Sequence record: OM386653.1
From: Escherichia phage vB_EcoM_ESCO8
Reading direction: 5' to 3' (one strand)
Length of the DNA: 64,000 nt
The notes under the pieces were generated by a model, which saw only the letters and a list, made by a program, of their open reading frames with translations, searched no databases and was not told the origin of the DNA. Position 1 is the first letter of the stretch, and every line of letters begins with the position of its first letter. The position numbers and the translations under genes are program-made. Positions 9,086-49,002 of the stretch are shown here, one piece after another.

Positions 9086-9167
9086 TGGCCGGGGTGACAG
9101 GATTCGAACCTGCATACTCCAATTACTCGGTTAACGCCTGATTAGAAGTCAGGTGAGATACACCCCG
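9086..9167 (-). tRNA. Atypical tRNA-like gene (UCU-type anticodon hairpin, no canonical D arm)
   Basis: Perfect 7-bp acceptor and canonical T-arm TTCGAAT; internal hairpin CCTGA-CTTCTAA-TCAGG. Confidence 0.35.
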
Positions 9168-9178
9168 TTTTCATAACG

Positions 9179-9208
9179 ACTATAACAAAAAAACTAAGTA
9201 AATGTCAA
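9179..9208 (-). promoter_or_regulatory. Sigma70-like promoter candidate for tRNA array (TTGACA-N18-TATAGT)
   Basis: Read on reverse complement; -10 ends ~12 nt upstream of the first tRNA-like gene. Confidence 0.35.
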
Positions 9209-9224
9209 GACATTTTTTAGGTGT

Positions 9225-9310
9225 TGGTGCAAGTGGAGGGATTCGAACCCTCAATCATTTAAGCGTTGCGTTTTAAGCACAATGTGTATCACCAATTCCA
9301 CCACACTTGC
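9225..9310 (-). tRNA. tRNA-Leu(UAA), type II
   Basis: Perfect acceptor, T-loop TTCGAAT, anticodon loop CTTAAAA. Confidence 0.6.
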
Positions 9311-9341
9311 ATATAGGAGATGCATAGCACCTCCTTTTAAA

Positions 9342-9417
9342 TGGTGGTTCCCCAGGGTTACAATCCCTGCCCTCGACACTTATGAGGTGTGCGCTCTCGT
9401 CAGTGAGCTATGGAACC
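9342..9417 (-). tRNA. tRNA with CAU anticodon, non-canonical T-loop
   Basis: D-arm GCTC/GAGC, anticodon loop CTCATAA, T-loop ATTGTAA. Confidence 0.45.
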
Positions 9418-10163: not shown

Positions 10164-11897
10164 TTAGTCAACCTGGATGGTTCCCATAGTACGAAGAACC
10201 TCTACATCAACACGGTTACGGATATCAGTAAATGTTTCATCACGTCCTTCTACTTGTGGTGTAATAACCGTACCATCTCTGAAGATAACTTGTAACTCAT
10301 TGTCTTCATCTTGGATATCTTTAAAAGAAAGATTATCCACAAGAGAAAGTTTACCATTTGTATCCTTAACAACCTTAATAAAACCTTTTGCAGAGCGTTT
10401 ACCAGGGTCAGTTTTAGGCTCTTTACTTACCAAAATTTCGTGTTCACCGATGATACTACCTGTTGCTTTAACAGCAAAACCAAAAGTATCTCGTGTATTG
10501 AACTGATAAGTATAACTACCAACACCAAATACAATATTGGAAGCTGCAAAACCTTTCTTCTTCAGTCGGCGTAAGATCTCGTGTTCTCGTTCAACAGTAA
10601 TAGAATCACCATAAATCATACCGATGTGCTGATCAAGAACCTTGTAGCCTTTTCGGTTGATAGTACCACCAAACACTTCCCAAAGGATTTGAATAGAACC
10701 TACTGCTTCACAATAAGGAATCTCATAAGTTTCATCAATACAATCAGCAACACTGCAATCCTGAAGAACATTGTAATACTTATTAACATCAGCCAAATGA
10801 ACTACTTCAGTGGCTGTAGCAATACCATTATTTAAAAGGTCTTCATAGTTAGCAAAAGATTCAACATTGTATCCTGCAACAACTTTAACCGGATCTCCTG
10901 AATCTGGACGAATAACAAGACGACCATTTCGTGACATAATGGATTCTTTCAATTCTACCAGAATGCGAGTCAAGACAGCCCAGTAATCATAAGAATCTGC
11001 TACATATGAACAAAAACCTTCTGGAACAATTTCTTCAATATAGCGGCGAAGAAACTCTTTCTCTGCTACATAACGAAGCCCATCAACATCATCTTTAAGA
11101 TGTGGGAAATGTTTCTTCAGATCTTCAACAATAGCTCCAATGTTAGTCGTTGCTACTGAATGTTCTGTTGCAGGAATAGAACCTGCAACAAACTGGTCAT
11201 AATCAATACCATAATAATCATGCACAGTTTCAATAGCCAGAATATTATCTGTTCCTGTGAAAGATGCCAAATGAGCGATACCACTCTTATAACCATCTTC
11301 GATATTACTTAAACCACGTAGGCTAAAATCATGACACTGGAAGTTAACGTGATCAATATTATCACACGTTGCCATCGCATATGCCATAGCAATACGCTTA
11401 TACTGAAAAGCTGCTGTAGCATTAGTCATTGTCTTCCAAGTTTCATCTGACAATAGTGTTTCCACATAGTTAGTTAACCAAAAGAATTTTTCTAAAGTAT
11501 TATGCACAGTAAACACAGGAACACCAATAGGACACAAAACACCTTCTGGCAGAGATCGAACTTCCAGCGGAAGATAACCTAAATCGTGCAATTCTCCCCA
11601 ACATTCAGCAGAAGGAGCAGAAGCACCTAATGCATTTTTAGACATACGATAAAATTTATTTACTGCTGCACTACGAGACATTTTAAAGAAGCTATCCCAC
11701 ATAGTTACAAGAGCATCAGTAACTGCTCGACGAATACCTAAAACAATTACACCACGTGCTTCACGATCTGCATAGTGTGCAAAGTTTTTATCATTACGAG
11801 GAGTTAAATTAGAGAAAATGAGTTTTGTATTTTGGTTGTACATCTGCTTGTGACCAGGCTTATACCAATCAGTAGCAAAAGGTGCAAAAATATTCAT
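10164..11897 (-). CDS. Nicotinamide phosphoribosyltransferase family protein (NAMPT/NadV-like; possibly Namat-type)
   Basis: 577 aa, NAMPT-like N-terminus and length; AAGGAGA RBS. Confidence 0.75.
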   Translation of the reverse strand: MNIFAPFATDWYKPGHKQMYNQNTKLIFSNLTPRNDKNFAHYADREARGVIVLGIRRAVTDALVTMWDSFFKMSRSAAVNKFYRMSKNALGASAPSAECWGELHDLGYLPLEVRSLPEGVLCPIGVPVFTVHNTLEKFFWLTNYVETLLSDETWKTMTNATAAFQYKRIAMAYAMATCDNIDHVNFQCHDFSLRGLSNIEDGYKSGIAHLASFTGTDNILAIETVHDYYGIDYDQFVAGSIPATEHSVATTNIGAIVEDLKKHFPHLKDDVDGLRYVAEKEFLRRYIEEIVPEGFCSYVADSYDYWAVLTRILVELKESIMSRNGRLVIRPDSGDPVKVVAGYNVESFANYEDLLNNGIATATEVVHLADVNKYYNVLQDCSVADCIDETYEIPYCEAVGSIQILWEVFGGTINRKGYKVLDQHIGMIYGDSITVEREHEILRRLKKKGFAASNIVFGVGSYTYQFNTRDTFGFAVKATGSIIGEHEILVSKEPKTDPGKRSAKGFIKVVKDTNGKLSLVDNLSFKDIQDEDNELQVIFRDGTVITPQVEGRDETFTDIRNRVDVEVLRTMGTIQVD

Positions 11898-11968
11898 AGT
11901 TATGTCTCCTTGTTTGTTAGTGTGGGAGTATCTTACTAAGCATACTCCCTATTGTCAACACTTATTAT

Positions 11969-12862
11969 TTAAAAATTCCACACGTATGGAGATACAATTT
12001 GTTGTTGCAAATCTGACTGATTCTTAACAAGAACACAGGAATCTTCTTGGATGTTATCTTCCCACACATTAAGAGAATGAATGCAGTCAAAGTGCTCACT
12101 TAACTCTTTAAGACCTTTAGAAAAGATACCGTGTGTAACATATAACTCAATCTTACCTGCGTTACGAGCACGTAGCACTTTAGCCAATTCAATAAAAGTT
12201 CTACCTCCGTCACAGATATCATCTACGATCATCAGGTTACGCTTATTGAAATCCTGTACAGAAATGTCTGTACGAACAATAGCACCTGTTGCAGTATCTC
12301 TAACCTTCTCTGCACAGAACACATCTAAAGACATTTTCTTAGATAATTTAAATATTTTCTTAAGAGCACCACCATCAGGACTAACAAGAGCAAAATTCTC
12401 CATACGTAACTTCCACTTTAAAGTTTCGTAAGCAATCTCTTCTTGAGGTATTACACAGAGTCTGTCAAACACTGCTGGAGTAACATCGCTATGTGGATCA
12501 GCAACGATAACACGTGAGAAATTTAATGAATTAATTATAGAAGCAAATGCTTTAACTCCGAATGCTTCCCCAGGTTCACACACTCTGTCTTGTCGTGCAT
12601 ATGGCACATACAGCATGAGTAAATCAACACAATATGGTTTATGATATAGCATATTGTCCAATGCATTCTTAGTCATAACCAAAGTCATCAAGTCTTTAGC
12701 AGATCTTACTTCTAAAGAGAGTAAGATTCTGTCTGTAGCATGATTGAAACCTGATAGATTCGTATCTAGTTGAACATGTTGTTCTCCACCAGAGAATGTA
12801 AAGACTTTAACGTCTACATCAGTAACATAACAGTCAACACCATGTAGAATACTAACTTTCAT
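11969..12862 (-). CDS. Ribose-phosphate pyrophosphokinase family protein (Prs-like; possibly Adps-type)
   Basis: 297 aa; VADPHS and DDICDGGRT motifs typical of PRPP synthetase; AAGGAGA RBS. Confidence 0.75.
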   Translation of the reverse strand: MKVSILHGVDCYVTDVDVKVFTFSGGEQHVQLDTNLSGFNHATDRILLSLEVRSAKDLMTLVMTKNALDNMLYHKPYCVDLLMLYVPYARQDRVCEPGEAFGVKAFASIINSLNFSRVIVADPHSDVTPAVFDRLCVIPQEEIAYETLKWKLRMENFALVSPDGGALKKIFKLSKKMSLDVFCAEKVRDTATGAIVRTDISVQDFNKRNLMIVDDICDGGRTFIELAKVLRARNAGKIELYVTHGIFSKGLKELSEHFDCIHSLNVWEDNIQEDSCVLVKNQSDLQQQIVSPYVWNF

Positions 12863-13904: not shown

Positions 13905-14140
13905 AAAAAGAAATTTTAACTGATGTAACATATTCTTGTATTAGCAAAGGCGGTTTATATCGTGTAGTTGGCTTCCCTAAACCAGCAGGTGTATCTAAAG
14001 TATTTGATCCTGTTGTGATCTACGAAGATGTAAGGACTGGTCAACAGTATTGGCGATTCCAGCAAGATTTCTTACACCGCATGGAGGTTGTTGATGGCGA
14101 AAACACCGAAGAAGCGATCCGTAACAAAGCACGCATCTAA
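13901..14140 (+). CDS. Hypothetical protein
   Basis: ORF track; start overlaps upstream stop. Confidence 0.45.
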   Translation: MKKEILTDVTYSCISKGGLYRVVGFPKPAGVSKVFDPVVIYEDVRTGQQYWRFQQDFLHRMEVVDGENTEEAIRNKARI

Positions 14141-14429
14141 AGATGGGGCGGCAAAAGCCGCTCCTAAGAAACAAAAATTTGACACAGAGGCTTTTGTCTT
14201 TGATACCCCAATAGAAAAGATAGAAGAAGCTCTTGCTAAATTTGAAGAACGTGATGCAGATCCTATGGCAGATCCTTTTACAGAGGATGAATTGTACTGG
14301 TTTGGCTGGTGGGTTTTGAATCTACCAGAAGCTAAAAAACGAGGAATGAAGTCAGTTCCTATTTGTGCAAAAGAATCGGCTGTGTTAGGTTTATACGAGA
14401 AGCCTAAAAGAAGGAGCAAAAAGAAATGA
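14094..14429 (+). CDS. Hypothetical basic protein
   Basis: ORF track 14088..14429 adjusted to ATG with GGAGG RBS. Confidence 0.45.
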   Translation: MAKTPKKRSVTKHASKDGAAKAAPKKQKFDTEAFVFDTPIEKIEEALAKFEERDADPMADPFTEDELYWFGWWVLNLPEAKKRGMKSVPICAKESAVLGLYEKPKRRSKKK

Positions 14430-14704: not shown

Positions 14705-14898
14705 TGTTTCTTATTTATTCAGGTAAAGCCAAATACATGCAAGGTGTAAAGCGTGTAGAAGTAGCAGATACTGTAACTATAGGAAAATCCTTTATTCTTT
14801 ATTTGTTTTATATCAATGGAGAAAGATTTGCTGTTTCTAAGAAGTTGGTAGATAATGGTAAAACTTGGAAAGAAGAGAAACAGGAAGGGGGTAGATAG
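14704..14898 (+). CDS. Hypothetical protein
   Basis: ORF track. Confidence 0.4.
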   Translation: MFLIYSGKAKYMQGVKRVEVADTVTIGKSFILYLFYINGERFAVSKKLVDNGKTWKEEKQEGGR

Positions 14899-15239
14899 TG
14901 GCTAAAATTCTTTGGTTAGACGATTTAAGAGATCCTAAAGATTATGGTTATGAGGATGCCATTTGGTTAAAATCTTTTGAGGATTGGTTATCTTTTGTTT
15001 CAGATGAAGATAATTTCAATAATATCTCAGAGATACACTTCGATAATGATCTTGGAGAAGATCAAGAAGGATATCATGCGTTCTTAGACGTAGAATGTAT
15101 GTTGTACGCGGGTGAATGGGATGCTCTTAAAACTATCTATGTTCATACATCAAATCCTTCTGCTGCTGGTAAATATATGTTAGCTAAGGAAAATTTTATT
15201 TCATCCTATGGTGTTGAAATTAAACGTGTTAACTATTAA
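14898..15239 (+). CDS. Hypothetical protein (GTG start)
   Basis: ORF track. Confidence 0.45.
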   Translation: MAKILWLDDLRDPKDYGYEDAIWLKSFEDWLSFVSDEDNFNNISEIHFDNDLGEDQEGYHAFLDVECMLYAGEWDALKTIYVHTSNPSAAGKYMLAKENFISSYGVEIKRVNY

Positions 15240-15394
15240 GTAGGTATTATGCATTACTCAGTTTGGTCAGAGTAAGAAGAGGATGAAGGGCGTTTTATCT
15301 ATAAAGAGGAAGAAAACTGTAACGATATGAGTAATGATCTTTTACTTCCTGATTACAGTTTTTTCGCTGATAGATTAAAAGAGTACGGAGAAAA

Positions 15395-15757
15395 TTGATG
15401 TGCGCTACTAATCAACATGATATTTGTTACCAACCTCTTACTTGGATTGGTGAGGATCACTATGCTCAACGTGTTATAGTATGCGCTGCGAATAAGTATA
15501 TTCTTAACAATGGCGAAGAGTTAATTATTCCTTGTGTTAGGCATGCAAATCCTGTACTATCTGCACAACTTAATGTTTTAAAAGATGCAGGATTGATCGA
15601 TAAACTGTTTTGCTTACCTGATAATCAAGGGTTTATTGATCAGTATTATAACTGGTGGAGTCGCAAAGATGCTTATATCATTGCAGATAACGCCAAACAA
15701 ATTAACTACGAAAGAAATGGTCACAACAGTGAACTATTCAGCGAGGGATTATACTAA
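15395..15757 (+). CDS. Hypothetical protein
   Basis: ORF track; RBS present. Confidence 0.5.
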   Translation: MMCATNQHDICYQPLTWIGEDHYAQRVIVCAANKYILNNGEELIIPCVRHANPVLSAQLNVLKDAGLIDKLFCLPDNQGFIDQYYNWWSRKDAYIIADNAKQINYERNGHNSELFSEGLY

Positions 15758-16308
15758 TGTTTATTACAAGTGATTTGCATTTTATGCACAAACGTATCCG
15801 AGAGTTTGCTCCTGAATATCGCCCGTGGGAAGATATGGAGCATATGACAGAAGCACTGATCGAAGCATGGAATAAATGTGCCACAACACCAGGAGTAAAG
15901 ATGTACCATCTTGGGGACTTCTGTTTCGGGACTGAAGAAGATACCCGTAAGATTGCTTCCCGTCTCCAAGGAGATATTACTTACTGTGTTGGGAACCATG
16001 ATTACAGTAAACACAGAAAAGTGCTTGCAGAGTATGGAGAAGTGGTTTATTATGACGAAGTGAAATATCAGAAGCTGTTTTTCGTCTTAAGCCATTACCC
16101 TATGGCTGCCTGGAATAAACAAGGGCATGGATCAATCATGCTACACGGACACTCTCACGGATCATTCCCTGATCATTTGTATGGGAAAATGTTGGATGTT
16201 GGTTGGGACGCACACGGGAAAATCTTGCATTTTGACGAAATCATCTCTATTATGGATAAGCGTGATATTGTTGTTGTAGATCATCATAAGATAATCAAAG
16301 GAGATTAA
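15757..16308 (+). CDS. Calcineurin-like metallophosphoesterase
   Basis: Motifs DLHFMH, GDFCFG, GNHD, HGHSH. Confidence 0.7.
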   Translation: MFITSDLHFMHKRIREFAPEYRPWEDMEHMTEALIEAWNKCATTPGVKMYHLGDFCFGTEEDTRKIASRLQGDITYCVGNHDYSKHRKVLAEYGEVVYYDEVKYQKLFFVLSHYPMAAWNKQGHGSIMLHGHSHGSFPDHLYGKMLDVGWDAHGKILHFDEIISIMDKRDIVVVDHHKIIKGD

Positions 16309-16309
16309 G

Positions 16310-17242
16310 GTGGCTAAGTTCAATTGTGATGACCTGATTGCAAAAGGTTTAGTGCATAAAAAAGAAGTTAAATCTGGAGAGTATGCTGGTCTTGCTGTAC
16401 TTAAATACAAAAACAATGTATTCTGGGATAACTTGTGGAACGTTGACAAACGACTTCTAGATTGTCGTGGGTTGGTTGTTGACTCAGAAGACAATGTTGT
16501 TATTTGGCCTTTTACTAAAATCTTTAATCGTTTTGAGAATGGTACAGATCTTCCAGCAGACCAACTTGTAGATGCTGTCCGTAAAGTAAACGGTTTTATG
16601 GCATCTGTAGGTGTGTACAAAGGGAAACTTGTTGTATCAACAACAGGGAGCCTAGAATCAGATTTTGCAATTATGGCAAAGAACCGTATTGTTTCCGAGT
16701 GTGACGACATAGAGTATTTCATTAAGTGGACAGAAAGTGCAAAAGCAACTTTTCTTTTTGAAATCTGTGATCCTTCTGATCCACATATTGTCGAAGAAGA
16801 ACCAGGCGCATACTTAATTGGAGCAAGAATTCAAAATCTTGATGGGACAAGTTTCATGTTACCTGAAGGTGTTCTTGATGGGATTGCATCTGTTACAAAG
16901 TTTAAACGTCCTGAAGTTTATCCGATGATTAAATTTTCAGATGTTGTTGAAATGTCTAAACATTGTAGACACGAAGGCTTTGTTGTTCGTGAAACAAACT
17001 ACCCGTTTAACTTACTCTTAAAGATTAAGTCACCATACTATCTTGCTAAGAAGTTCCTTATGCGTGGTGGCAATAAGAAGTGGGATATGATTTGGGACAA
17101 CCCAAAAAATGCTAAAGAAATTGTTGACGAAGAATATTATACTTTGCTAGAATGGCTTCGAAATAATTTTACGAAGGTTCAGTGGGCTGCTCTAGATCCA
17201 CAAGAGCGACGTAAAGAAATAGAAAACTTCTTTGGAGGCTAA
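16310..17242 (+). CDS. RNA-ligase-like nucleotidyltransferase (GTG start)
   Basis: KxNG motif (RKVNGF); position between phosphoesterase and kinase. Confidence 0.55.
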   Translation: MAKFNCDDLIAKGLVHKKEVKSGEYAGLAVLKYKNNVFWDNLWNVDKRLLDCRGLVVDSEDNVVIWPFTKIFNRFENGTDLPADQLVDAVRKVNGFMASVGVYKGKLVVSTTGSLESDFAIMAKNRIVSECDDIEYFIKWTESAKATFLFEICDPSDPHIVEEEPGAYLIGARIQNLDGTSFMLPEGVLDGIASVTKFKRPEVYPMIKFSDVVEMSKHCRHEGFVVRETNYPFNLLLKIKSPYYLAKKFLMRGGNKKWDMIWDNPKNAKEIVDEEYYTLLEWLRNNFTKVQWAALDPQERRKEIENFFGG

Positions 17243-17647
17243 ATGAAACAACTTATCATTTTACGTGGTGTTTCAGGCGCAGGTAAATCTACAGTAGCAG
17301 AAATTATTTCTGAAGGTTATTGGCCTATCTGTGAGGCAGATCAATATCATTACACAGAAAACGGTGTTTACGATTGGAAGCCAGAAAATGTAGGTAAAGC
17401 ACACGCATGGTGTCAGAGTATTGTTCGTGATGCTATGGCATCTAATATTAAAAAGATTATTGTCTCTAACACTTCAACCACAGAGAAAGAACTTAAACCT
17501 TATTTTACTATTGCTGAAGAGTTTGGTTATCAAGTTATCTCTTTAGTTGTTGAAAATAGGCACGGTAACGACTCAATTCATGAGGTTCCACAACATATTC
17601 GTGATCAGCAAGAGAAACGTCTTCGCAGTTCACTTAAGCTACAATAA
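17243..17647 (+). CDS. P-loop polynucleotide-kinase-like protein
   Basis: Walker A GVSGAGKST near N-terminus; 134 aa. Confidence 0.65.
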   Translation: MKQLIILRGVSGAGKSTVAEIISEGYWPICEADQYHYTENGVYDWKPENVGKAHAWCQSIVRDAMASNIKKIIVSNTSTTEKELKPYFTIAEEFGYQVISLVVENRHGNDSIHEVPQHIRDQQEKRLRSSLKLQ

Positions 17648-17656
17648 GGAGAGTGT

Positions 17657-17977
17657 ATGGAAATTTATTCTGGTGAAGGTAAGTATTTTACAGTAGTCGA
17701 TAATGGTGAAATTATTATTTATCGCTACGGAAGTGAGTGGAGGAACGAGACAGGAGACGGCTATATCTTATCTTTGCTCAGTTTGATTAATGATCTTACG
17801 GAAGAACTTGAAGAAACAAAACGTTCATATGATGATCAAGTAGATTCATTAGAAAACATTATTTCAGATCTAAATGAAGAAGTTTCTTGTTTGAATGAAC
17901 AAGTTTCAGAGTTAACACTGGAATGTGAAGATTTAAATGATGTTATTGCAGATTTAAATGAACGTCTTAAGGATTAA
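17657..17977 (+). CDS. Hypothetical coiled-coil protein
   Basis: ORF track; heptad-like repeats. Confidence 0.45.
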   Translation: MEIYSGEGKYFTVVDNGEIIIYRYGSEWRNETGDGYILSLLSLINDLTEELEETKRSYDDQVDSLENIISDLNEEVSCLNEQVSELTLECEDLNDVIADLNERLKD

Positions 17978-17980
17978 TAT

Positions 17981-18205
17981 ATGAGCACAGCTATCTATGT
18001 TAAAGGTGTAAGCGAAGATCAACAAATGTTATTTTCATTTGGTGAGAATACTGAAATGGAAGATATGTTTAATGATATCCTTGATGCCCTTTCTTCGGAA
18101 GGGTTCACAATGATTACATACTTTATGGCAACATCTTCTGAATATGTTGATACAGATCTTGAAGATTTGATGGAAGAAATTCAAACTCTTGTGTATAATT
18201 GGTAA
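17981..18205 (+). CDS. Hypothetical acidic protein
   Basis: ORF track. Confidence 0.4.
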   Translation: MSTAIYVKGVSEDQQMLFSFGENTEMEDMFNDILDALSSEGFTMITYFMATSSEYVDTDLEDLMEEIQTLVYNW

Positions 18206-18402
18206 GGTTAACTATGACATTTATTGAAGAACTAACGAGAATTGCAAACGCGCCTAACAGTAGTGAAGATCCTTACTTTATGGTGGATGATTACACTGGT
18301 GGTAATATTGAGGATGCCTATGAACTAGGCAGACTACACGGTGAAATTGAAATGGCTAAATGGGTTCTTTCGCAACTGGAGGTTAAAGATGAAACAAACT
18401 AA
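18199..18402 (+). CDS. Hypothetical protein
   Basis: ORF track. Confidence 0.4.
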   Translation: MVRLTMTFIEELTRIANAPNSSEDPYFMVDDYTGGNIEDAYELGRLHGEIEMAKWVLSQLEVKDETN

Positions 18403-19504
18403 TCCTACATTATATGGTAAAACTTCTACAGGTAAAATTAGACAGTGGTCAGTCTATACCGAAGGTAGTGTTGTAACTGTTGCTCATGGTCAATTAGGTG
18501 GAAAGATCACTAGCAAATCTTATACGGCAGAACCTAAAAATATTGGTCGCTCAAATGAAACAACAGCAGAAGAACAAGCTGAAATAGAAGCTCTTGCCAA
18601 ATGGACAAAGCAAATTAAGAATGGGTATTATAAAACAAAAGAGGAAGCTGAAAACCATGTTCCTTCTACACCCATGAAATGTCAGGATTATAAAGATTAT
18701 GCTGATCGTGTTTTGTTCCCAGGTTATGCACAATATAAATTGAATGGTCTACGTTCAATGATTAACATGCAAGGTGAATGTTTATCTAAAGCTGGAGAGG
18801 TATATAAACTCCCACCTCACTGGGAAGAAATTCCAACCTTCATTAAAGAAGTAGTTGGTCATCCTCTTGACGGTGAAGTTTTTGCTGGTTTGGGTATCCT
18901 TAGCCTTCAACAAATTAATAGTGCGTGGAAAAAGCATAATGCTAACACTCCGCTTCTTAAATACTATGTATATGATGTTCCCGTGCCATCTGTACCATTT
19001 GAGAAGAGGGTTCAAGTTTTGGCTGCTCTCAAAGAAGTTGTTGAAGATAAAGGTTTAGATGAACTCATTTGTGTAGTACATACAGAGTACATTGAAAACC
19101 AAGAGCAGTTTGATGCTTTCTATGCAAAAGCTCTACGTGAGAAAGCGGAAGGTGTGGTGTATCGTAACGCACAAGGTGTTTACGAGTTTGATAAACGTTC
19201 TTATGATGTTATTAAACGTAAACCACGGCAGACGCTTGAAGTTAAAGTGGTAAGTGCAAAGCGTGATAAAAATGGTGACGGGGTATTGACAGGCGAGATG
19301 GAAAATGGTAAAGTAGTCGAATTCCTGATGCGTAAGGATTCAGATGAAACCATTAACTATCGTAAAGCAGAAAATGCCGAAATGTTAATTGGTAAATTTG
19401 TTGAGATTGAGTATGAAGAGTTTTCCGATGGTGGAATACCTACGAAACCAACAGGTGTCCGTTTACGGGAAATGGTGGAGGGAACATGGGAGCCAAGAGA
19501 GTAG
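18390..19504 (+). CDS. ATP-dependent DNA ligase (probable)
   Basis: Motif I KLNGLR; ~370 aa; start at ATG after GAGGT RBS. Confidence 0.6.
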
Positions 19505-20115
19505 ACCTTGTAGGTAAGAAATGCGGTTGTTATACTGTCTTAGAAGAGATTGAAAGGGACAAACATGGCAAAAGACGTTTTACTTGTTCTTGTGATTGTG
19601 GTAATATTTGCACGGTAACTATGGAAACACTTAGGAAGAGTAGAAGTTCTTATTGTTCCAAGTGTAGACCGAAAACAACACAAACAGGAGCATACAAATC
19701 GTGGGAAGCTATGTTAGGGAGATGCTATAACAAAAACAATACTCACTTTGAATACTACGGTGGTCGTGGTATTAAGGTTTGTGATGCTTGGAGAAATTCA
19801 TTCTCTGCATTCTTTGAGGATATGGGAGATAGACCTAAAGGTTTATCTCTTGACAGAATAGACTCGGAAAAAGATTACAGTAAAGAAAATTGTCGCTGGG
19901 CTACAAGGTCTGTCCAGTCATACAATACACGAAAACAGAAAAATAACACTTCTGGTAAAACAGGTGTTGTGTGGAGCGAGAAAGAAAAAAGATGGATTGC
20001 TCGTATATCCTATCAAGGAAAAGATATCCGTCTTGGAGCATTTATTGATATTGAAGATGCTATATCAGCAAGACAGGAAGCTGAAGTATTGTATTTTGGT
20101 AAGATTAAAACATAA
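19486..20115 (+). CDS. AP2-domain/zinc-finger endonuclease-like protein (possible homing endonuclease)
   Basis: N-terminal Cys cluster; C-terminal AP2-like VVWSEKEKRWIARISYQGKDIRLGAF. Confidence 0.55.
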   Translation: MGAKRVDLVGKKCGCYTVLEEIERDKHGKRRFTCSCDCGNICTVTMETLRKSRSSYCSKCRPKTTQTGAYKSWEAMLGRCYNKNNTHFEYYGGRGIKVCDAWRNSFSAFFEDMGDRPKGLSLDRIDSEKDYSKENCRWATRSVQSYNTRKQKNNTSGKTGVVWSEKEKRWIARISYQGKDIRLGAFIDIEDAISARQEAEVLYFGKIKT

Positions 20116-20126
20116 AGGAGGTTGCA

Positions 20127-20318
20127 ATGAACATTGAAGTTATTTTGATTCTTGTGTTGCTTTCTCTTGTTGCTTGTGGTATAATTTTCGCATCAACTTT
20201 CCCTCACCCAACATGGTGGCAGAAGGTTAGTCTGATGATTGTCTACGGTGCAGCAGGTGTACAAATGGGTGCAGTTGTTGTATATCTGGTGGAATTTACA
20301 AAACAATATTTTAAATAA
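20127..20318 (+). CDS. Small membrane protein (2 TM)
   Basis: ORF track; hydrophobic helices. Confidence 0.5.
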   Translation: MNIEVILILVLLSLVACGIIFASTFPHPTWWQKVSLMIVYGAAGVQMGAVVVYLVEFTKQYFK

Positions 20319-20327
20319 GGAGAAACA

Positions 20328-21050
20328 ATGATTGAGAATTTTTTTAAACAAGTAAAAGTGGACAATAGCTTCTTTATCAAAGCTGCCGATCAAATTGTTG
20401 CTTGGAATGCTAAGGCACGTGGTGGAGTAACTCCAGAATTTACTCAAGAGATGTTTGAAGCTCAACTTTCTTTTGTACGCGAAGAACTAAAAGAGTTTCA
20501 AGCAGCAGCACAGGAAAATGATCACGTTGAATTACTTGATGCAGCAGCAGATATTTTTGTGGTAGCCTCCTACCTGGCGTTTATGTTCTTTGGTAAAGAA
20601 GGTGTTGATAAAGCTCTGGAAATGCCAACAGGAGATGTTCTGGCAGAGAACATTTACGATGTTATCATTGAATTTGATAAAATGGTAGAAAATGACTTGC
20701 AATTTGCCTTAATGTCTCTTACACTTACCCGTATGGCACGAGATACTTTGGTGCGTTCTGTTTATAACGAGAAGAAGGTTATGCGTGAAGTGTTGAATAG
20801 CAATGAGTCCAAGTATCCTACCAAGAAGCAACTCCTGGCTATTTGGGAAACTAAGGATATTATTGAAGCTCTTGAAAAAGAGTGCGATGCTATCGAGATG
20901 CGAAGCAAAGATCGTGCAGAAGGTTCTTATACTGGGGTACATGCTGTATATAACGAAGTTCAAAAGGTGTACGTATTCTTTGATGACAAAGGTAAAATTA
21001 TGAAACCATCTACCTTTGTTAAACCTAATATCGCAGCAATCATTGCTTAA
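20328..21050 (+). CDS. MazG-like nucleoside triphosphate pyrophosphohydrolase (possible dNTPase)
   Basis: All-alpha acidic motifs (EELKEF, ELLDAAADI). Confidence 0.5.
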   Translation: MIENFFKQVKVDNSFFIKAADQIVAWNAKARGGVTPEFTQEMFEAQLSFVREELKEFQAAAQENDHVELLDAAADIFVVASYLAFMFFGKEGVDKALEMPTGDVLAENIYDVIIEFDKMVENDLQFALMSLTLTRMARDTLVRSVYNEKKVMREVLNSNESKYPTKKQLLAIWETKDIIEALEKECDAIEMRSKDRAEGSYTGVHAVYNEVQKVYVFFDDKGKIMKPSTFVKPNIAAIIA

Positions 21051-21056
21051 GAAATA

Positions 21057-21078
21057 AAGCCCCTTCGGGGGCTTATTG
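21057..21078 (+). terminator. Stem-loop terminator (AAGCCCC-TTCG-GGGGCTT)
   Basis: GC stem, short T-rich tail. Confidence 0.45.
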
Positions 21079-21086
21079 GAGGTATT

Positions 21087-42638: not shown

Positions 42639-42965
42639 ATGAAAATAACGACAGAACAGGCTTTAATAGACAAAGGAAGGGAAATCTTAGAAAGTCATTT
42701 GGAGGATATTCAAAGGACTCCAGGGTATCTCGGCTGGCGTATACAAGAAGCCGTCGATTTTCTACCCCGTAAAAATAAAGAGATTGAAGTAAGATCTCTA
42801 TTCCTCCTTGTTAAAGTAGATGGTGACGCTATATACAAAGATGTAGCGTCTCACATTGAACAAATAGAAGAAAAAGCCTACAAAGAATTTGCAGATCTTG
42901 TTGTAGAACATAATATAGAAGGTAAAGTTAATATCTTTATACTTATGGATTTTGAGGAGAGTTGA
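42639..42965 (+). CDS. Hypothetical protein
   Basis: ORF track. Confidence 0.45.
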   Translation: MKITTEQALIDKGREILESHLEDIQRTPGYLGWRIQEAVDFLPRKNKEIEVRSLFLLVKVDGDAIYKDVASHIEQIEEKAYKEFADLVVEHNIEGKVNIFILMDFEES

Positions 42966-43708
42966 TGCTAGTATATCAAGAAATTAGTGTAAAAGATGAT
43001 CAAGACCTGTTTATTATTGGTGATTTACATGGTTGCTTTGATTTGTACCAGAAAGGTGTTAATACTTTAGGTATCCGAGATCAAGATGTTGTTGTATCTT
43101 TAGGAGATCTTACAGATCGCGGCAAGCAGAATTTTCGTTGTGTTGTTGAATTCACCAGAAAGCTAAATCGTTATGGTATTCGTGGAAATCATGAAGATAT
43201 GATGATTAAAGGGTTGCTAGAAGGTGATAGACGATATTACGAATGTTGGTTTCAGAACGGAGGCCATACAGTTCTAGACGAGTGTGGAGAAGAGGGTGCA
43301 ACTGCTCTTGCTTTGATGCTAGAAGATTTACCTGTTGTACTTGTTGTCAATTATCGTAATATGAAACTAGGCTTTATTCACGGTGGGTATCCTTCAGTTT
43401 TGGAACATTTACCAGTGACAGAAGTTTTGCCATTTTGTTTGAATATGAATAAAGAGCAAGTTTCTCGATTCACAGAATCTTTAATGTGGGATCGTGATAT
43501 GATAGATTGCGCACTTGAAGGGATTCTTCTTCCTAGAGTTTCAGGAGTAGATTATGTATTTCACGGGCATTCTTATGTTCCTAAACCTGTGATTAGCAGT
43601 AATAGGGTATATATGGACACAGGATCTTGCTTCAATGGTAATTTAACCTTTGCATATTTTGATGATTCAAATACGTTACAATTTTATTCTACTTTAGAGG
43701 AGGACTAA
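42962..43708 (+). CDS. Ser/Thr protein phosphatase, PP-lambda-like
   Basis: Motifs GDLHG, GDLTDRG, GNHE. Confidence 0.7.
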   Translation: MMLVYQEISVKDDQDLFIIGDLHGCFDLYQKGVNTLGIRDQDVVVSLGDLTDRGKQNFRCVVEFTRKLNRYGIRGNHEDMMIKGLLEGDRRYYECWFQNGGHTVLDECGEEGATALALMLEDLPVVLVVNYRNMKLGFIHGGYPSVLEHLPVTEVLPFCLNMNKEQVSRFTESLMWDRDMIDCALEGILLPRVSGVDYVFHGHSYVPKPVISSNRVYMDTGSCFNGNLTFAYFDDSNTLQFYSTLEED

Positions 43709-45871: not shown

Positions 45872-46861
45872 ATGAAAGTTTTAAGTCTTTTTGATGGTAT
45901 GTCAGGAGGAATGCTTGCGCTAAAAAGTGCAGGTATTGAAGTAGATACATATTACGCTTCAGAATTAGACAAATTTGCCGTAGCTGAAAGCCAAGCAAAT
46001 TTTCCAGATATTATTCAGTTAGGTGATGTTACAAAATGGAGAGAATGGGATATCCCGTGGGGAGAAATTGATCTTTTGTTAGGTGGTAGTCCGTGTCAAG
46101 GCTTCTCTTCTTCTGGTAAGGGTTTGAACTTTCAAGATCCGCGATCTAAGCTATTCTTCGAATATGTTGAAATTCTTGAACATATTAAAAAGTTTAATCC
46201 TAATGTTAAGTTCATGCTTGAAAACGTTAAGATGAAAGCGGAGTGGGAAAACGTGATCACAAGTTACTTAGGTGTTGATCCCGTATTCATTAACTCCGCA
46301 GATTTCACGGCACAGAATAGACAACGTTTATACTGGTGCAACTGGGAAATAAAACCCTGGGAGATTACCAATGAAGTGTTGCAAGATATCATTGAAGATG
46401 ATAGTATTGTAGACAGAGATAAGGCTTATTGCATAGATGCAAATTATGCCAAAGGTGGTAATATAGAACAGTATTTTGAAAAGAGTCGCAGACAACTGGT
46501 TTTTTATCCGGCAGCAATATATGGGCGTAGAATTAATGAAAATGGCAAACGTAGTACATCTAAAACTGATCGTTTGGTACATTGTTTGGAAGTTCAGGAC
46601 AGTGGAAAAACTCGTTGCCTCACAACTGTGCCTAAAGACGTACTATTAGCTTATATTCCACCTGGAAGATATCTAGATGCCTTTGAAAAATTAAGTGAAG
46701 GCGTACATTATAGAAAGTTAACGGTTAAAGAGTGTTGCCGCTTGCAAGGTGTGCCAGATGACTACTTTAAAGTGAGTAGTAACACACAAGCATATAAGAT
46801 GTTAGGCAATGGTTGGACTATACCTGTCATTGCACATATTCTTAAATGTATGGAGGAATAA
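45872..46861 (+). CDS. DNA (cytosine-5)-methyltransferase
   Basis: Motif I FDGMSGG, motif IV GGSPCQGFS, motif VI ENV. Confidence 0.75.
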   Translation: MKVLSLFDGMSGGMLALKSAGIEVDTYYASELDKFAVAESQANFPDIIQLGDVTKWREWDIPWGEIDLLLGGSPCQGFSSSGKGLNFQDPRSKLFFEYVEILEHIKKFNPNVKFMLENVKMKAEWENVITSYLGVDPVFINSADFTAQNRQRLYWCNWEIKPWEITNEVLQDIIEDDSIVDRDKAYCIDANYAKGGNIEQYFEKSRRQLVFYPAAIYGRRINENGKRSTSKTDRLVHCLEVQDSGKTRCLTTVPKDVLLAYIPPGRYLDAFEKLSEGVHYRKLTVKECCRLQGVPDDYFKVSSNTQAYKMLGNGWTIPVIAHILKCMEE

Positions 46862-48189: not shown

Positions 48190-49002
48190 ATGCGAAGAGT
48201 AATTTTTGTTAGTGGCGCAGGTTTAAGTGCAGACAGTGGGATTCGAACGTTCCGAACAGACACAGATAGTGGTCGTGCCTTATGGGAAGAATATGACTTA
48301 GAAGAGGTCTGCGATATTGGAGCTTTCCAAGCAGGTTATCGTGTGAGAACATCTCCAGATCTTCCAGTGGTCGGTGGTGTAGACGAGAACGGTATGGACT
48401 TGTATGCCAAAACACACGAATTTTATAACAAAAGACGTGTTGAGCTTAAAGATGTACAACCTAATGCTGCACATATTCAAATAGCAAAGTGGTTTAAGGA
48501 ATATCCTAACCAAGTAGTAAACTTGACAACAAACGTCGATGATCTACTAGAGCGAGCAGGTGTGGACAGGGATTCTGTTATTCACGTGCACGGGTATCTC
48601 CCTGAAGTAGTTTACCGTATGCATCCTGGAGATTACAAAACACTGGTAGACATTGGTTACAATAGTATAAACATAGATGATTATAACTGGGTGAAGCCTA
48701 ATGTTGTATTTTTTGGTGAGGCTGCACCTTTGTATGCAGATATGGCTCACTTGTTTGATACTTTGACCATGCAAGATTTGGTTGTTGTAGTAGGATGTTC
48801 AAACCAAGTTATCAATTTTAATTGGGAATTATTCCCTGCACTTAATATGGGTACAAAAATGATTGTTGTTAACCCAGGAATTAATTACGAAGAAACTCTT
48901 CTTTACGAAGATAGAGGAGTCTTTGTTTACAGAGAAAAGGCAGCAGATGCTTTTAGCAATCCTGCTTTCATAAAAATGATAGAAGATCATTTGACTAAGT
49001 AA
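48190..49002 (+). CDS. Sir2-family (sirtuin-like) NAD-dependent protein, no zinc ribbon
   Basis: Motifs GAGLSADSGIRTFR, TTNVDDL, HVHG. Confidence 0.65.
   Translation: MRRVIFVSGAGLSADSGIRTFRTDTDSGRALWEEYDLEEVCDIGAFQAGYRVRTSPDLPVVGGVDENGMDLYAKTHEFYNKRRVELKDVQPNAAHIQIAKWFKEYPNQVVNLTTNVDDLLERAGVDRDSVIHVHGYLPEVVYRMHPGDYKTLVDIGYNSINIDDYNWVKPNVVFFGEAAPLYADMAHLFDTLTMQDLVVVVGCSNQVINFNWELFPALNMGTKMIVVNPGINYEETLLYEDRGVFVYREKAADAFSNPAFIKMIEDHLTK

Follow-up and report, generated by a model that had tools for sequence, protein, structure and literature searches.

Bacterial defences that cleave tRNA (PrrC, RloC, retron-PtuAB, PARIS, OLD, Cas13) are now viewed as a major arm of bacterial immunity. To our knowledge, the Pnkp and Rnl1 proteins of phage T4 are still the only viral repair answer to tRNA cleavage that is understood experimentally. 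Here we describe a 64,000-nucleotide stretch of Escherichia phage vB_EcoM_ESCO8 (OM386653.1), referred to as the window, in which three adjacent genes at 15757-17647 encode a calcineurin-like metallophosphoesterase (PE), a predicted Rnl1-family RNA ligase and a small P-loop kinase. We consider it likely that this operon is a split RNA repair pathway, in which separate proteins heal and then seal broken ends.

Relative to the T4 pair, which counters PrrC, the ESCO8 operon has a ligase of the Rnl1 family and fold with the essential residues aligned, a kinase of the same clade and, as we read it, the same logic of healing both ends before sealing. The arrangement differs from that of T4, as the initial annotation had held. 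The T4 kinase is fused to a HAD (DxDxT) phosphatase, whereas the ESCO8 kinase is a stand-alone protein of 134 amino acids (aa) with no HAD domain, and the T4 genes pseT and rnlA are non-adjacent, whereas the ESCO8 trio forms one tight operon. The phosphatase candidate of ESCO8 is instead a binuclear metallophosphoesterase, and its ligase is shorter (310 aa versus 374 aa in T4), with a reduced C-terminal helical region.

In the bacterial Pnkp/Hen1 and Pnkp1-Rnl-Hen1 systems (C. thermocellum, Capnocytophaga; PMC2190708, PMC4411300), the same classes of kinase, metallophosphoesterase and ATP-dependent ligase are found, the ligase of Pnkp1-Rnl-Hen1 is also a separate protein, and the kinase domains of Pnkp1 and CthPnkp are matched by the ESCO8 kinase profile. 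The equivalence to bacterial Pnkp-type repair first drawn for this locus holds for these activity classes, but not for the proteins themselves: CthPnkp unites three domains in one polypeptide where ESCO8 has three separate open reading frames (ORFs), PE is not of the lambda-phosphatase clade, the ligase is of Rnl1 type and not of Pnkp type, and Hen1 is absent from the + strand cluster at 13.2-21.05 kb, in which Pfam detected no methyltransferase domain in any + strand ORF. Within the window a single methylase was seen, a C5 DNA methylase (45872-46861).

A computational study by Iyer et al. (2022; PMC9503650) described a sirtuin-centred ‘type 2’ RNA-repair neighbourhood in phages rV5/V5 and Mydo. 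Its components include cREC, a receiver-like fold predicted by the Aravind group to open cyclic phosphates (PMC7824862, PMC9503650). ESCO8 resembles this neighbourhood in clustering a T4-like ligase, cREC, kinase, MazG-like protein and calcineurin-like PE at 14898-21050, and the rV5-like phage JohannBauhin has homologs of all these components. It differs in that the sirtuin lies outside the neighbourhood, 31 kb off, that the trio is one co-directional operon where the published type has two divergent units, and that PE is a near-constant partner of the ligase in our survey (38/41 lineages), as against an ‘occasional’ one in PMC9503650. The split tRNA splicing system of Mucorales (PMC11571804, PMC10946426) likewise consists of a stand-alone Rnl1/Trl1-type ligase and a stand-alone small P-loop RNA kinase. 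However, the fungal ligase needs a 2′-phosphate, the pathway ends with the NAD+ (nicotinamide adenine dinucleotide)-dependent Tpt1, the 3′-end enzyme is a 2H cyclic phosphodiesterase rather than a metallophosphoesterase, and the system serves eukaryotic housekeeping splicing rather than viral counter-defence. For PE itself the point of comparison is aq_1665 of Aquifex aeolicus (1xm7), a cellular structural-genomics protein without assigned function or known partner, which shares just 22-27% sequence identity with PE.

Gene layout and protein families

ESCO8 is a Justusliebigvirus-type E. coli myophage (Stephanstirmvirinae). The initial annotation had placed three adjacent, co-oriented genes at 15757-17647, and all three ORFs are found there on the + strand: PE (15757-16308, 183 aa, ATG start), the RNA ligase (16310-17242, 310 aa, GTG start) and the P-loop kinase (17243-17647, 134 aa, ATG start). 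Gene structure and coupling can be read directly from the sequence. Spacing over three junctions, starting with that between the upstream ORF and PE, is 1, 1 and 0 bases, with the junctions reading TAATG (an overlap), TAA-G-GTG and TAA-ATG, respectively. The Shine-Dalgarno sequences for the PE, ligase and kinase starts (GAGGGA, AAGGAG and GGAGG) each lie within the preceding gene. The three genes are almost certainly co-transcribed and translationally coupled. A scan for promoters and terminators gave numbers of sites equal to the shuffled expectation (29 versus 26.5 and 5 versus 4.1), its sole suggestive site being a terminator-like hairpin at 21062-21082, 3′ of the MazG-like gene. When the operon proteins were scanned with PADLOC, no defence system was matched except for a weak match of the kinase P-loop to a CARF-PDDEXK-AAA model.

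Profile searches of the three proteins led to aq_1665 for PE, to T4 Rnl1 for the ligase and to polynucleotide kinases for the kinase; families, catalytic residues and, for PE and the ligase, folds were compared directly. PE matches phrog_547 (5e-55) and carries the motifs SDLH (DxH, 5-8), GDFCFG (53-58), GNHD (79-82), H113 and HGHSHG (130-135). All seven ligands of the binuclear metal site (D6, H8, D54, N80, H113, H132 and H134) are invariant, in keeping with the calcineurin-like assignment made at the outset; of the motifs named then, GNHD is present, while the supposed GDxxG is in fact GDFCFG, or GDxxxG. Searched against the PDB, the PE profile had a sole match, Aquifex aq_1665 (1xm7, E 1.7e-20). 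By its metal ligands and its closest sequence and fold match, PE belongs to the aq_1665/1xm7 metallophosphoesterase family, and it falls outside the lambda-phosphatase/CthPnkp type. The latter is a proven healer of RNA 2′,3′-cyclic phosphate ends in CthPnkp and lambda. The aq_1665-type family comprises 17,148 clusters (50% identity, E <= 1e-10), and a literature search found no paper characterising any of its members. Among the structural neighbours of PE, the nearest characterised ones, LpxH, YfcE and MJ0936, act on small diesters, and MPE nuclease and Mre11 are also found. We predict that PE heals RNA 3′ ends by removing the 2′,3′-cyclic phosphate and/or the 3′-phosphate. A second metallophosphoesterase in the window (42962-43708, + strand) is classical lambda-phosphatase-like (PF00149, 3e-13) and is encoded away from the module; an enzyme of this type adjoins the ligase in certain Vibrio-phage-like loci (L068, L077, L081).

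The middle protein matches the Pfam model PF09511 (RNA_lig_T4_1) over residues 52-244 with 53.0 bits, above the gathering cut-off of 28.3, and the family phrog_562 with 5e-68. The KVNG lysine motif noted initially is present at 92-95 as motif I, the nucleotidyl-acceptor position being K92 (codon at 16583). A profile built from 24 homologs (48-85% identity) matched T4 Rnl1 alone in the PDB (2c5u, 9do4; E 8e-10) and reached no Trl1 structure. R53, K70/F72, K92, E151, E222-G223 and K238/K240 are invariant in the 24 homologs and align to T4 Rnl1, where we take the essential counterparts to be R54, K75/F77, K99, E159, E227-G228 and K240/K242. The AlphaFold2 model has a mean confidence (pLDDT) of 91.4, and Foldseek placed it closest to T4 Rnl1 and fungal Trl1-LIG (E 8e-13 to 1e-11; template-modelling score 0.60-0.64), ahead of Rnl3 (~1e-9), Rnl2 (~1e-6), Rnl5 (~1e-5) and DNA ligases. 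The last 65 residues form a conserved helical stretch in which K247, K248, R252, K257, W292 and R300 are invariant. This stretch has roughly half the length of the C-terminal helical domain that gives T4 Rnl1 its tRNA specificity and, at the above template-modelling scores, is no more than a possible equivalent of it. Profile and model thus bear out the nucleotidyltransferase fold first proposed, and identify the protein as an Rnl1-family ATP-dependent RNA ligase with predicted sealing activity.

The third protein contains the P-loop GAGKST at 12-17 as first described (G9-x-x-G12-A-G-K15-S16-T17), and matches AAA_33 (1.5e-9), phrog_2071 (1e-57) and phrog_505 ‘polynucleotide kinase’ (5e-9). The best PDB match to a profile of 20 sequences was RazKIN (9D8A), followed among the top matches by Pnkp1 (4xrp), the CthPnkp kinase domain (4gp7), T4 Pnk (1ly1/1ltq) and the tRNA kinase PSTK, at E 5e-5 to 7e-4 overall. 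RazKIN is a biochemically proven stand-alone RNA 5′-OH kinase that partners a stand-alone Rnl1/Trl1-type ligase in Mucorales (PMC11571804). Gluconate and adenylate kinases were weaker matches, and neither a deoxynucleoside monophosphate (dNMP) kinase nor NadR/NRK was matched in this PDB search, so that the question of a dNMP kinase, raised initially, is answered in favour of polynucleotide and tRNA kinases. K15, D33 (the general-base position) and R106 (a lid arginine) are invariant in the family; D33, in EADQYH, aligns with the Asp of ‘NRDDF’ in Pnkp1 and with that of CthPnkp, and R106 with a lid Arg of CthPnkp. The profile lends moderate support to a minimal stand-alone polynucleotide 5′-OH kinase, whose activity is predicted. 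We rejected a nicotinamide-riboside kinase of NAD+ salvage, given that there is no NadR/NRK match in the PDB and that the kinase fuses to RNA ligase.

Linkage and fusions across phages

A search of viral contigs seeded with the ligase recovered 80 loci (38-97% identity), which reduce to 41 lineages when grouped at 70% identity. Of the 41, 37 have a kinase homolog no more than 7 kb from the ligase, and in 28 the distance is below 300 bp. PE is found within 7 kb in 38/41 lineages and at less than 300 bp in 24. The genes are arranged in at least four orders: PE-ligase-kinase, kinase-ligase-PE, ligase-kinase-PE, PE at a distance from ligase-cREC-kinase, and a divergent layout with PE/kinase on one side and ligase-cREC on the other. 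In two lineages, kinase (N-terminal) and ligase (C-terminal) form single ORFs of 421-432 aa with all motifs intact (L044, L058 and L065). Linkage and fusions were observed directly in these loci, and since the trio stays linked despite its shuffled order and natural fusions exist, the heal-and-seal reading is a well-supported prediction.

Further fusions were found among the best matches to the PE profile. P0488 (328 aa) joins PE to an AAA_33 kinase, P0362 (524 aa) joins it to an Rnl2-type RNA ligase (PF09414, motif KIHGTN), and both P0375 (372 aa) and P0460 (417 aa) join it to HAD_SAK_2, a phosphatase domain known as ‘Swiss Army Knife RNA repair’. Whatever the order of the genes, these four multidomain proteins link the PE family to the processing of RNA ends. 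Another candidate PE-kinase fusion, P0263, was rejected: it is a deletion chimera of PE (N-terminal) and kinase (C-terminal) in which PE motif V, the ligase and the P-loop of the kinase are missing.

The ligase subfamily occurs in 617 phage records, and the split operon is carried by hundreds of sequenced phages that infect E. coli, Klebsiella, Pseudomonas, Vibrio and Acinetobacter, including therapeutic candidates and engineerable phages of the BASEL collection. Over 14800-17700, ESCO8 shares 97-98.5% identity with many phages in GenBank, among them the BASEL phage JohannJBalmer (Bas62). Several records with 97.5% identity over the module (MG065639, MG065645, MG065656 and MG065689) are named ‘Campylobacter phage’ with C. 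jejuni as host; the Campylobacter names on these E. coli-type phage records probably reflect host mislabelling or contamination in the deposits. For Bas62 and Bas53, GenBank already names the three proteins ‘putative phosphoesterase / RNA ligase / polynucleotide kinase’, and for ECGD1 the label is ‘RNA ligase/RNA repair’. The BASEL paper (PMC8594841) contains no discussion of the module. The module is real and widespread, but it is annotated in GenBank and was predicted in PMC9503650 and PMC7824862; its novelty was overrated at first, and the outcome is the confirmation of an existing prediction rather than a discovery. What is new here is the assignment of PE to the aq_1665 type, the near-constant linkage of PE and ligase, the evidence from fusions and the test that separates PE from the NAD+-reconstitution pathway NARP1 (below).

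Repair model and competing explanations

The module probably has more members than the trio to which the initial annotation had confined it. The cREC protein (14898-15239, + strand) is likely a fourth: it matches Pfam PF20274 (cREC_REC) with 54 bits, against a cut-off of 27, and has Rec-like acidic residues (WLDDL 6-10, HFDND 47-51, HTSNP 83-87). In relatives its gene is located between ligase and kinase (phapecoctavirus-like) or directly 3′ of the ligase (rV5-like). It is predicted to open 2′,3′-cyclic phosphates.

Metal-independent RNases, such as PrrC/RloC-type anticodon nucleases and HEPN toxins, leave a 2′,3′-cyclic phosphate and a 5′-OH. At such a break PE, possibly after ring opening by cREC, would strip the 3′-terminal phosphate to yield a 2′,3′-diol, the 134-aa kinase would phosphorylate the 5′-OH, and the Rnl1-type ligase would adenylate itself at K92, move the AMP to the 5′-phosphate and seal the nick. 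Direct repair of this T4-like kind is the most economical model. That both healing enzymes are needed suggests breaks of the kind left by metal-independent RNases such as PrrC or RloC. Toprim nucleases such as P2-OLD leave 5′-P/3′-OH ends, which T4 ligases can join without healing (PMC12445682). By analogy with T4 Pnkp/Rnl1, the substrates would most likely be tRNAs nicked in the anticodon loop, which is the weakest link in the argument. Linkage and fusions support RNA repair as first suggested, while the link of the module to tRNA is moderate, 17/41 lineages having tRNA genes no more than 7 kb from the ligase. The tRNA array of ESCO8 is best regarded as context, its genes being possible substrates or replacements.

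Several observations weigh against this model. The tRNA array (6630-9417) lies on the opposite strand, 6.3 kb upstream of the module, and many lineages that bear the module have no tRNA gene nearby. The E-values that relate the kinase to polynucleotide kinases are moderate (5e-5 to 5e-4). In the 149-kb contig L090, PE and cREC are kept in the same operon position (4239-5725) without ligase or kinase, and can therefore be retained without sealing; L090 and P0263 make it evident that the module is dispensable and decays in some lineages. The kinase::ligase fusion lineages have no recognisable phosphatase nearby and, like L090, speak against a four-part pathway that is obligatory. A search for a non-orthologous displacement of the phosphatase near these fusions gave just an Rnl2-type ligase, a DUF3307 protein and a 236-aa ORF. 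Finally, we infer each enzymatic activity of the module proteins, and equally the way PE and cREC would share their task, the substrate RNA and the identity of the host nuclease. Beside the fusion gene, about 550 bp upstream, there is a conserved ORF of 236-237 aa without a Pfam match (L044:5304-6014; L064:5416-6129). It could encode the missing end-healing enzyme of the fusion lineages, which have no PE.

The end-healing chemistry could also follow the NAD+-dependent, yeast-like pathway of Iyer et al. (2022), an explanation we find improbable for this operon. Here cREC or PE would open the ring to a 2′-phosphate and the ligase would seal, after which a Tpt1/KptA-like phage sirtuin would remove the junction 2′-phosphate with NAD+, while PE, MazG and the NAD+-reconstitution genes would handle ADP-ribose by-products and NAD+ supply. 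Such a pathway accords with the neighbourhoods in section 3.7.3 of PMC9503650, which combine sirtuin, T4-like ligase, cREC, kinase and MazG (and a calcineurin-like protein in some), and with a ligase fold that is equally near to the 2′-phosphate-dependent Trl1 ligases and to T4 Rnl1. The ligase sequence profile, however, reaches T4 Rnl1 and no Trl1 structure. A sirtuin adjoins the ligase/kinase genes in rV5-like and phapecoctavirus-like relatives (11/80 loci), as in JohannBauhin, L004-L013 and L016, and ESCO8 has a homolog (48190-49002, + strand; Pfam SIR2 1e-22) with 57% and 48% identity to the module sirtuins of phapecoctavirus-like and rV5-like phages, respectively; yet it is encoded 31 kb downstream of the module, and 69/80 loci have no sirtuin within 7 kb. 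A binuclear metallophosphoesterase could moreover clear cyclic and linear phosphates alone, as CthPnkp and lambda-phosphatase do (PMC2190708), so that a 2′-phosphotransferase would be needless.

The NAD+ genes themselves bear on the same question. ESCO8 carries a NARP1-type (Namat/Adps) pair at 10164-12862 on the - strand, composed of an NAPRTase-family (NAMPT-like) protein of 577 aa and a PRS-like protein of 297 aa; the NARP1 pathway of NAD+ reconstitution has been demonstrated experimentally in the BASEL phage Bas63 (bioRxiv 10.1101/2024.02.11.579819). In 18/41 lineages the ligase has NAMPT/PRS genes no more than 7 kb away, which speaks for the NAD+-dependent route; their layouts are those of NARP1, NARP1-AP (with an inserted Macro gene) or NARP2-like (NMNAT-Nudix). 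A counter-survey seeded with the PRS-like (Adps) gene gave 54 lineages, with the NAMPT partner adjacent in 53, but NARP1 stands alone in 42 of the 54. PE is near Adps in merely 8/54 lineages, 5 of which also have the ligase. PE therefore tracks the ligase (38/41) and not the NAD+ pathway. A 2026 preprint attaches ‘phage phosphatases’ to NARP1, the enzyme concerned being a Macro-domain protein (Adpp). We considered PE as such a NARP1-extending ‘phage phosphatase’ acting against aRES defence and rejected it, as Adpp is a Macro-domain protein and PE is absent from most Adps loci.

The survey also speaks to a quite improbable explanation, that PE (with cREC) degrades small molecules such as immune signals, 2′,3′-cyclic nucleoside monophosphates or ADP-ribose cyclic phosphate, and stands beside ligase and kinase merely through a common early anti-defence island. 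The small-diester substrates of LpxH, YfcE and MJ0936, the retention of PE and cREC without ligase/kinase in L090, and the presence of NARP1/NARP2, Macro, HD-hydrolase and MazG genes in the island all fit it. Genes for RNA repair, NAD+ reconstitution, Macro, HD-hydrolase and MazG proteins, found together, resemble a counter-defence island of variable content. Against the small-molecule explanation, PE follows the ligase far better than it follows NARP1, it is translationally coupled to the ligase here, and its homologs are found joined to a kinase of the polynucleotide type, to RNA ligase and to a HAD phosphatase of RNA repair.

We find it very unlikely that kinase and PE act in DNA replication or repair by healing DNA ends (3′-phosphate, 5′-OH nicks) on behalf of an ATP-dependent DNA ligase, whose gene (18341-19504) begins 0.7 kb downstream of the trio. 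Related polynucleotide kinases do phosphorylate DNA too (PMC11571804), MPE nuclease and Mre11 are among the structural neighbours of PE, and in 17/41 lineages the RNA ligase has a DNA ligase gene no more than 7 kb away. This linkage is nonetheless rarer than that of kinase or PE; in the loci surveyed the kinase is fused to RNA ligase and never to DNA ligase, the fusion partners of PE include an RNA ligase and domains of RNA repair, and there would be no explanation for an Rnl1 gene in the middle of the trio. A role of the ligase mainly in tail-fibre attachment, like the second activity of T4 gp63, with unrelated neighbours, is scarcely credible: it is backed solely by the name that PHROG/pharokka gives the product, ‘RNA ligase and tail fiber protein attachment catalyst’, against the invariance of every catalytic residue, a position in the early/nucleotide-metabolism region away from tail genes, and tight linkage or, in some phages, fusion to the kinase.

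Returning to RNA repair by the trio and cREC, three wider proposals can be made only tentatively. The aq_1665-type PE might represent a very large family of RNA 3′-end healing enzymes, although we would not yet bet on it. Together with cREC, it is conceivably a third widespread route for clearing 2′,3′-cyclic phosphates, beside the HAD domain of T4 Pnkp and the lambda-phosphatase-type domain of Pnkp, a proposal that is speculative to a similar degree. In the boldest and equally doubtful version, the module would be wired to NAD+ metabolism, with the sirtuin as an RNA 2′-phosphotransferase and NARP1/NARP2 supplying or recycling NAD+; this wiring would account for the NAD+-reconstitution genes nearby in 18/41 lineages. 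Characterising the module would show what cREC and a large orphan family of metallophosphoesterases do, reveal the defence nucleases it neutralises, and explain the company of phage tRNA arrays and NAD+-reconstitution genes.

Neighbouring genes and the tRNA array

The ORF immediately upstream of PE (15395-15757, + strand, 120 aa) matches phrog_839 (4e-47), has no Pfam match and ends in a stop codon that shares bases with the start of PE (TAATG). The ORF is lineage-specific, being present in just 3/80 related loci. One GenBank record alone calls it an ‘anti-restriction nuclease’, and it is ‘hypothetical’ elsewhere. Neither PHROG nor Pfam pointed to a function for it or for the small ORFs. Further upstream, the ORF at 14088-14429 (+ strand) encodes a 111-113-aa protein of phrog_6208 with Lys-rich N- and C-terminal tails. 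Its gene is directly upstream of, and overlapping, the PE gene in phapecoctavirus-like loci and in L029, and the protein may be a further partner of the module, perhaps RNA-binding.

Downstream, the MazG-like nucleotide pyrophosphohydrolase gene (20328-21050, + strand; Pfam PRA-PH 3e-7, phrog_671 6e-28) has a homolog in the rV5-like phage JohannBauhin, a 714-nucleotide gene placed after that of the sirtuin, and is a peripheral member of the published type of neighbourhood. Between it and the DNA ligase gene there is an HNH homing endonuclease gene (19486-20115, + strand; phrog_374 2e-72), which is not found at that position in JohannJBalmer. The sirtuin gene of the window is located beside a 181-aa ORF that GenBank names ‘putative aminoacyl-tRNA synthetase’ and that has no Pfam match.

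The tRNA array was initially put at about 18 genes and described as next to the module. The number is lower, with 16 genes detected by ARAGORN, 14 by Rfam and 17 in their union, including Lys-UUU, Tyr, Asn, Gln and Thr-UGU. Array and module do share a region, but ‘next to’ is loose, because the NAMPT/PRS-like gene pair and small + strand ORFs intervene over the 6.3 kb between them and the strands are opposite. One tRNA (9089-9167, - strand) was found by Rfam only, with 38.6 bits, and missed by ARAGORN, whereas those at 6945-7020, 8933-9022 and 9342-9417 were found by ARAGORN only, none of them at the Rfam gathering score.

Two unusual RNA genes were seen in related loci. A tmRNA-like gene (L055:13189-13591) with the tag peptide AANDANYGDYALAA lies about 5 kb downstream of a kinase::ligase fusion gene. 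In rV5-like relatives there is an over-long tRNA gene of 97-98 nucleotides (L016:270-367; L082:669-765), called tRNA-Lys in GenBank and assigned a four-base anticodon by ARAGORN. It may contain an insertion or an intron, and this, if true, would be of interest beside an RNA ligase module.

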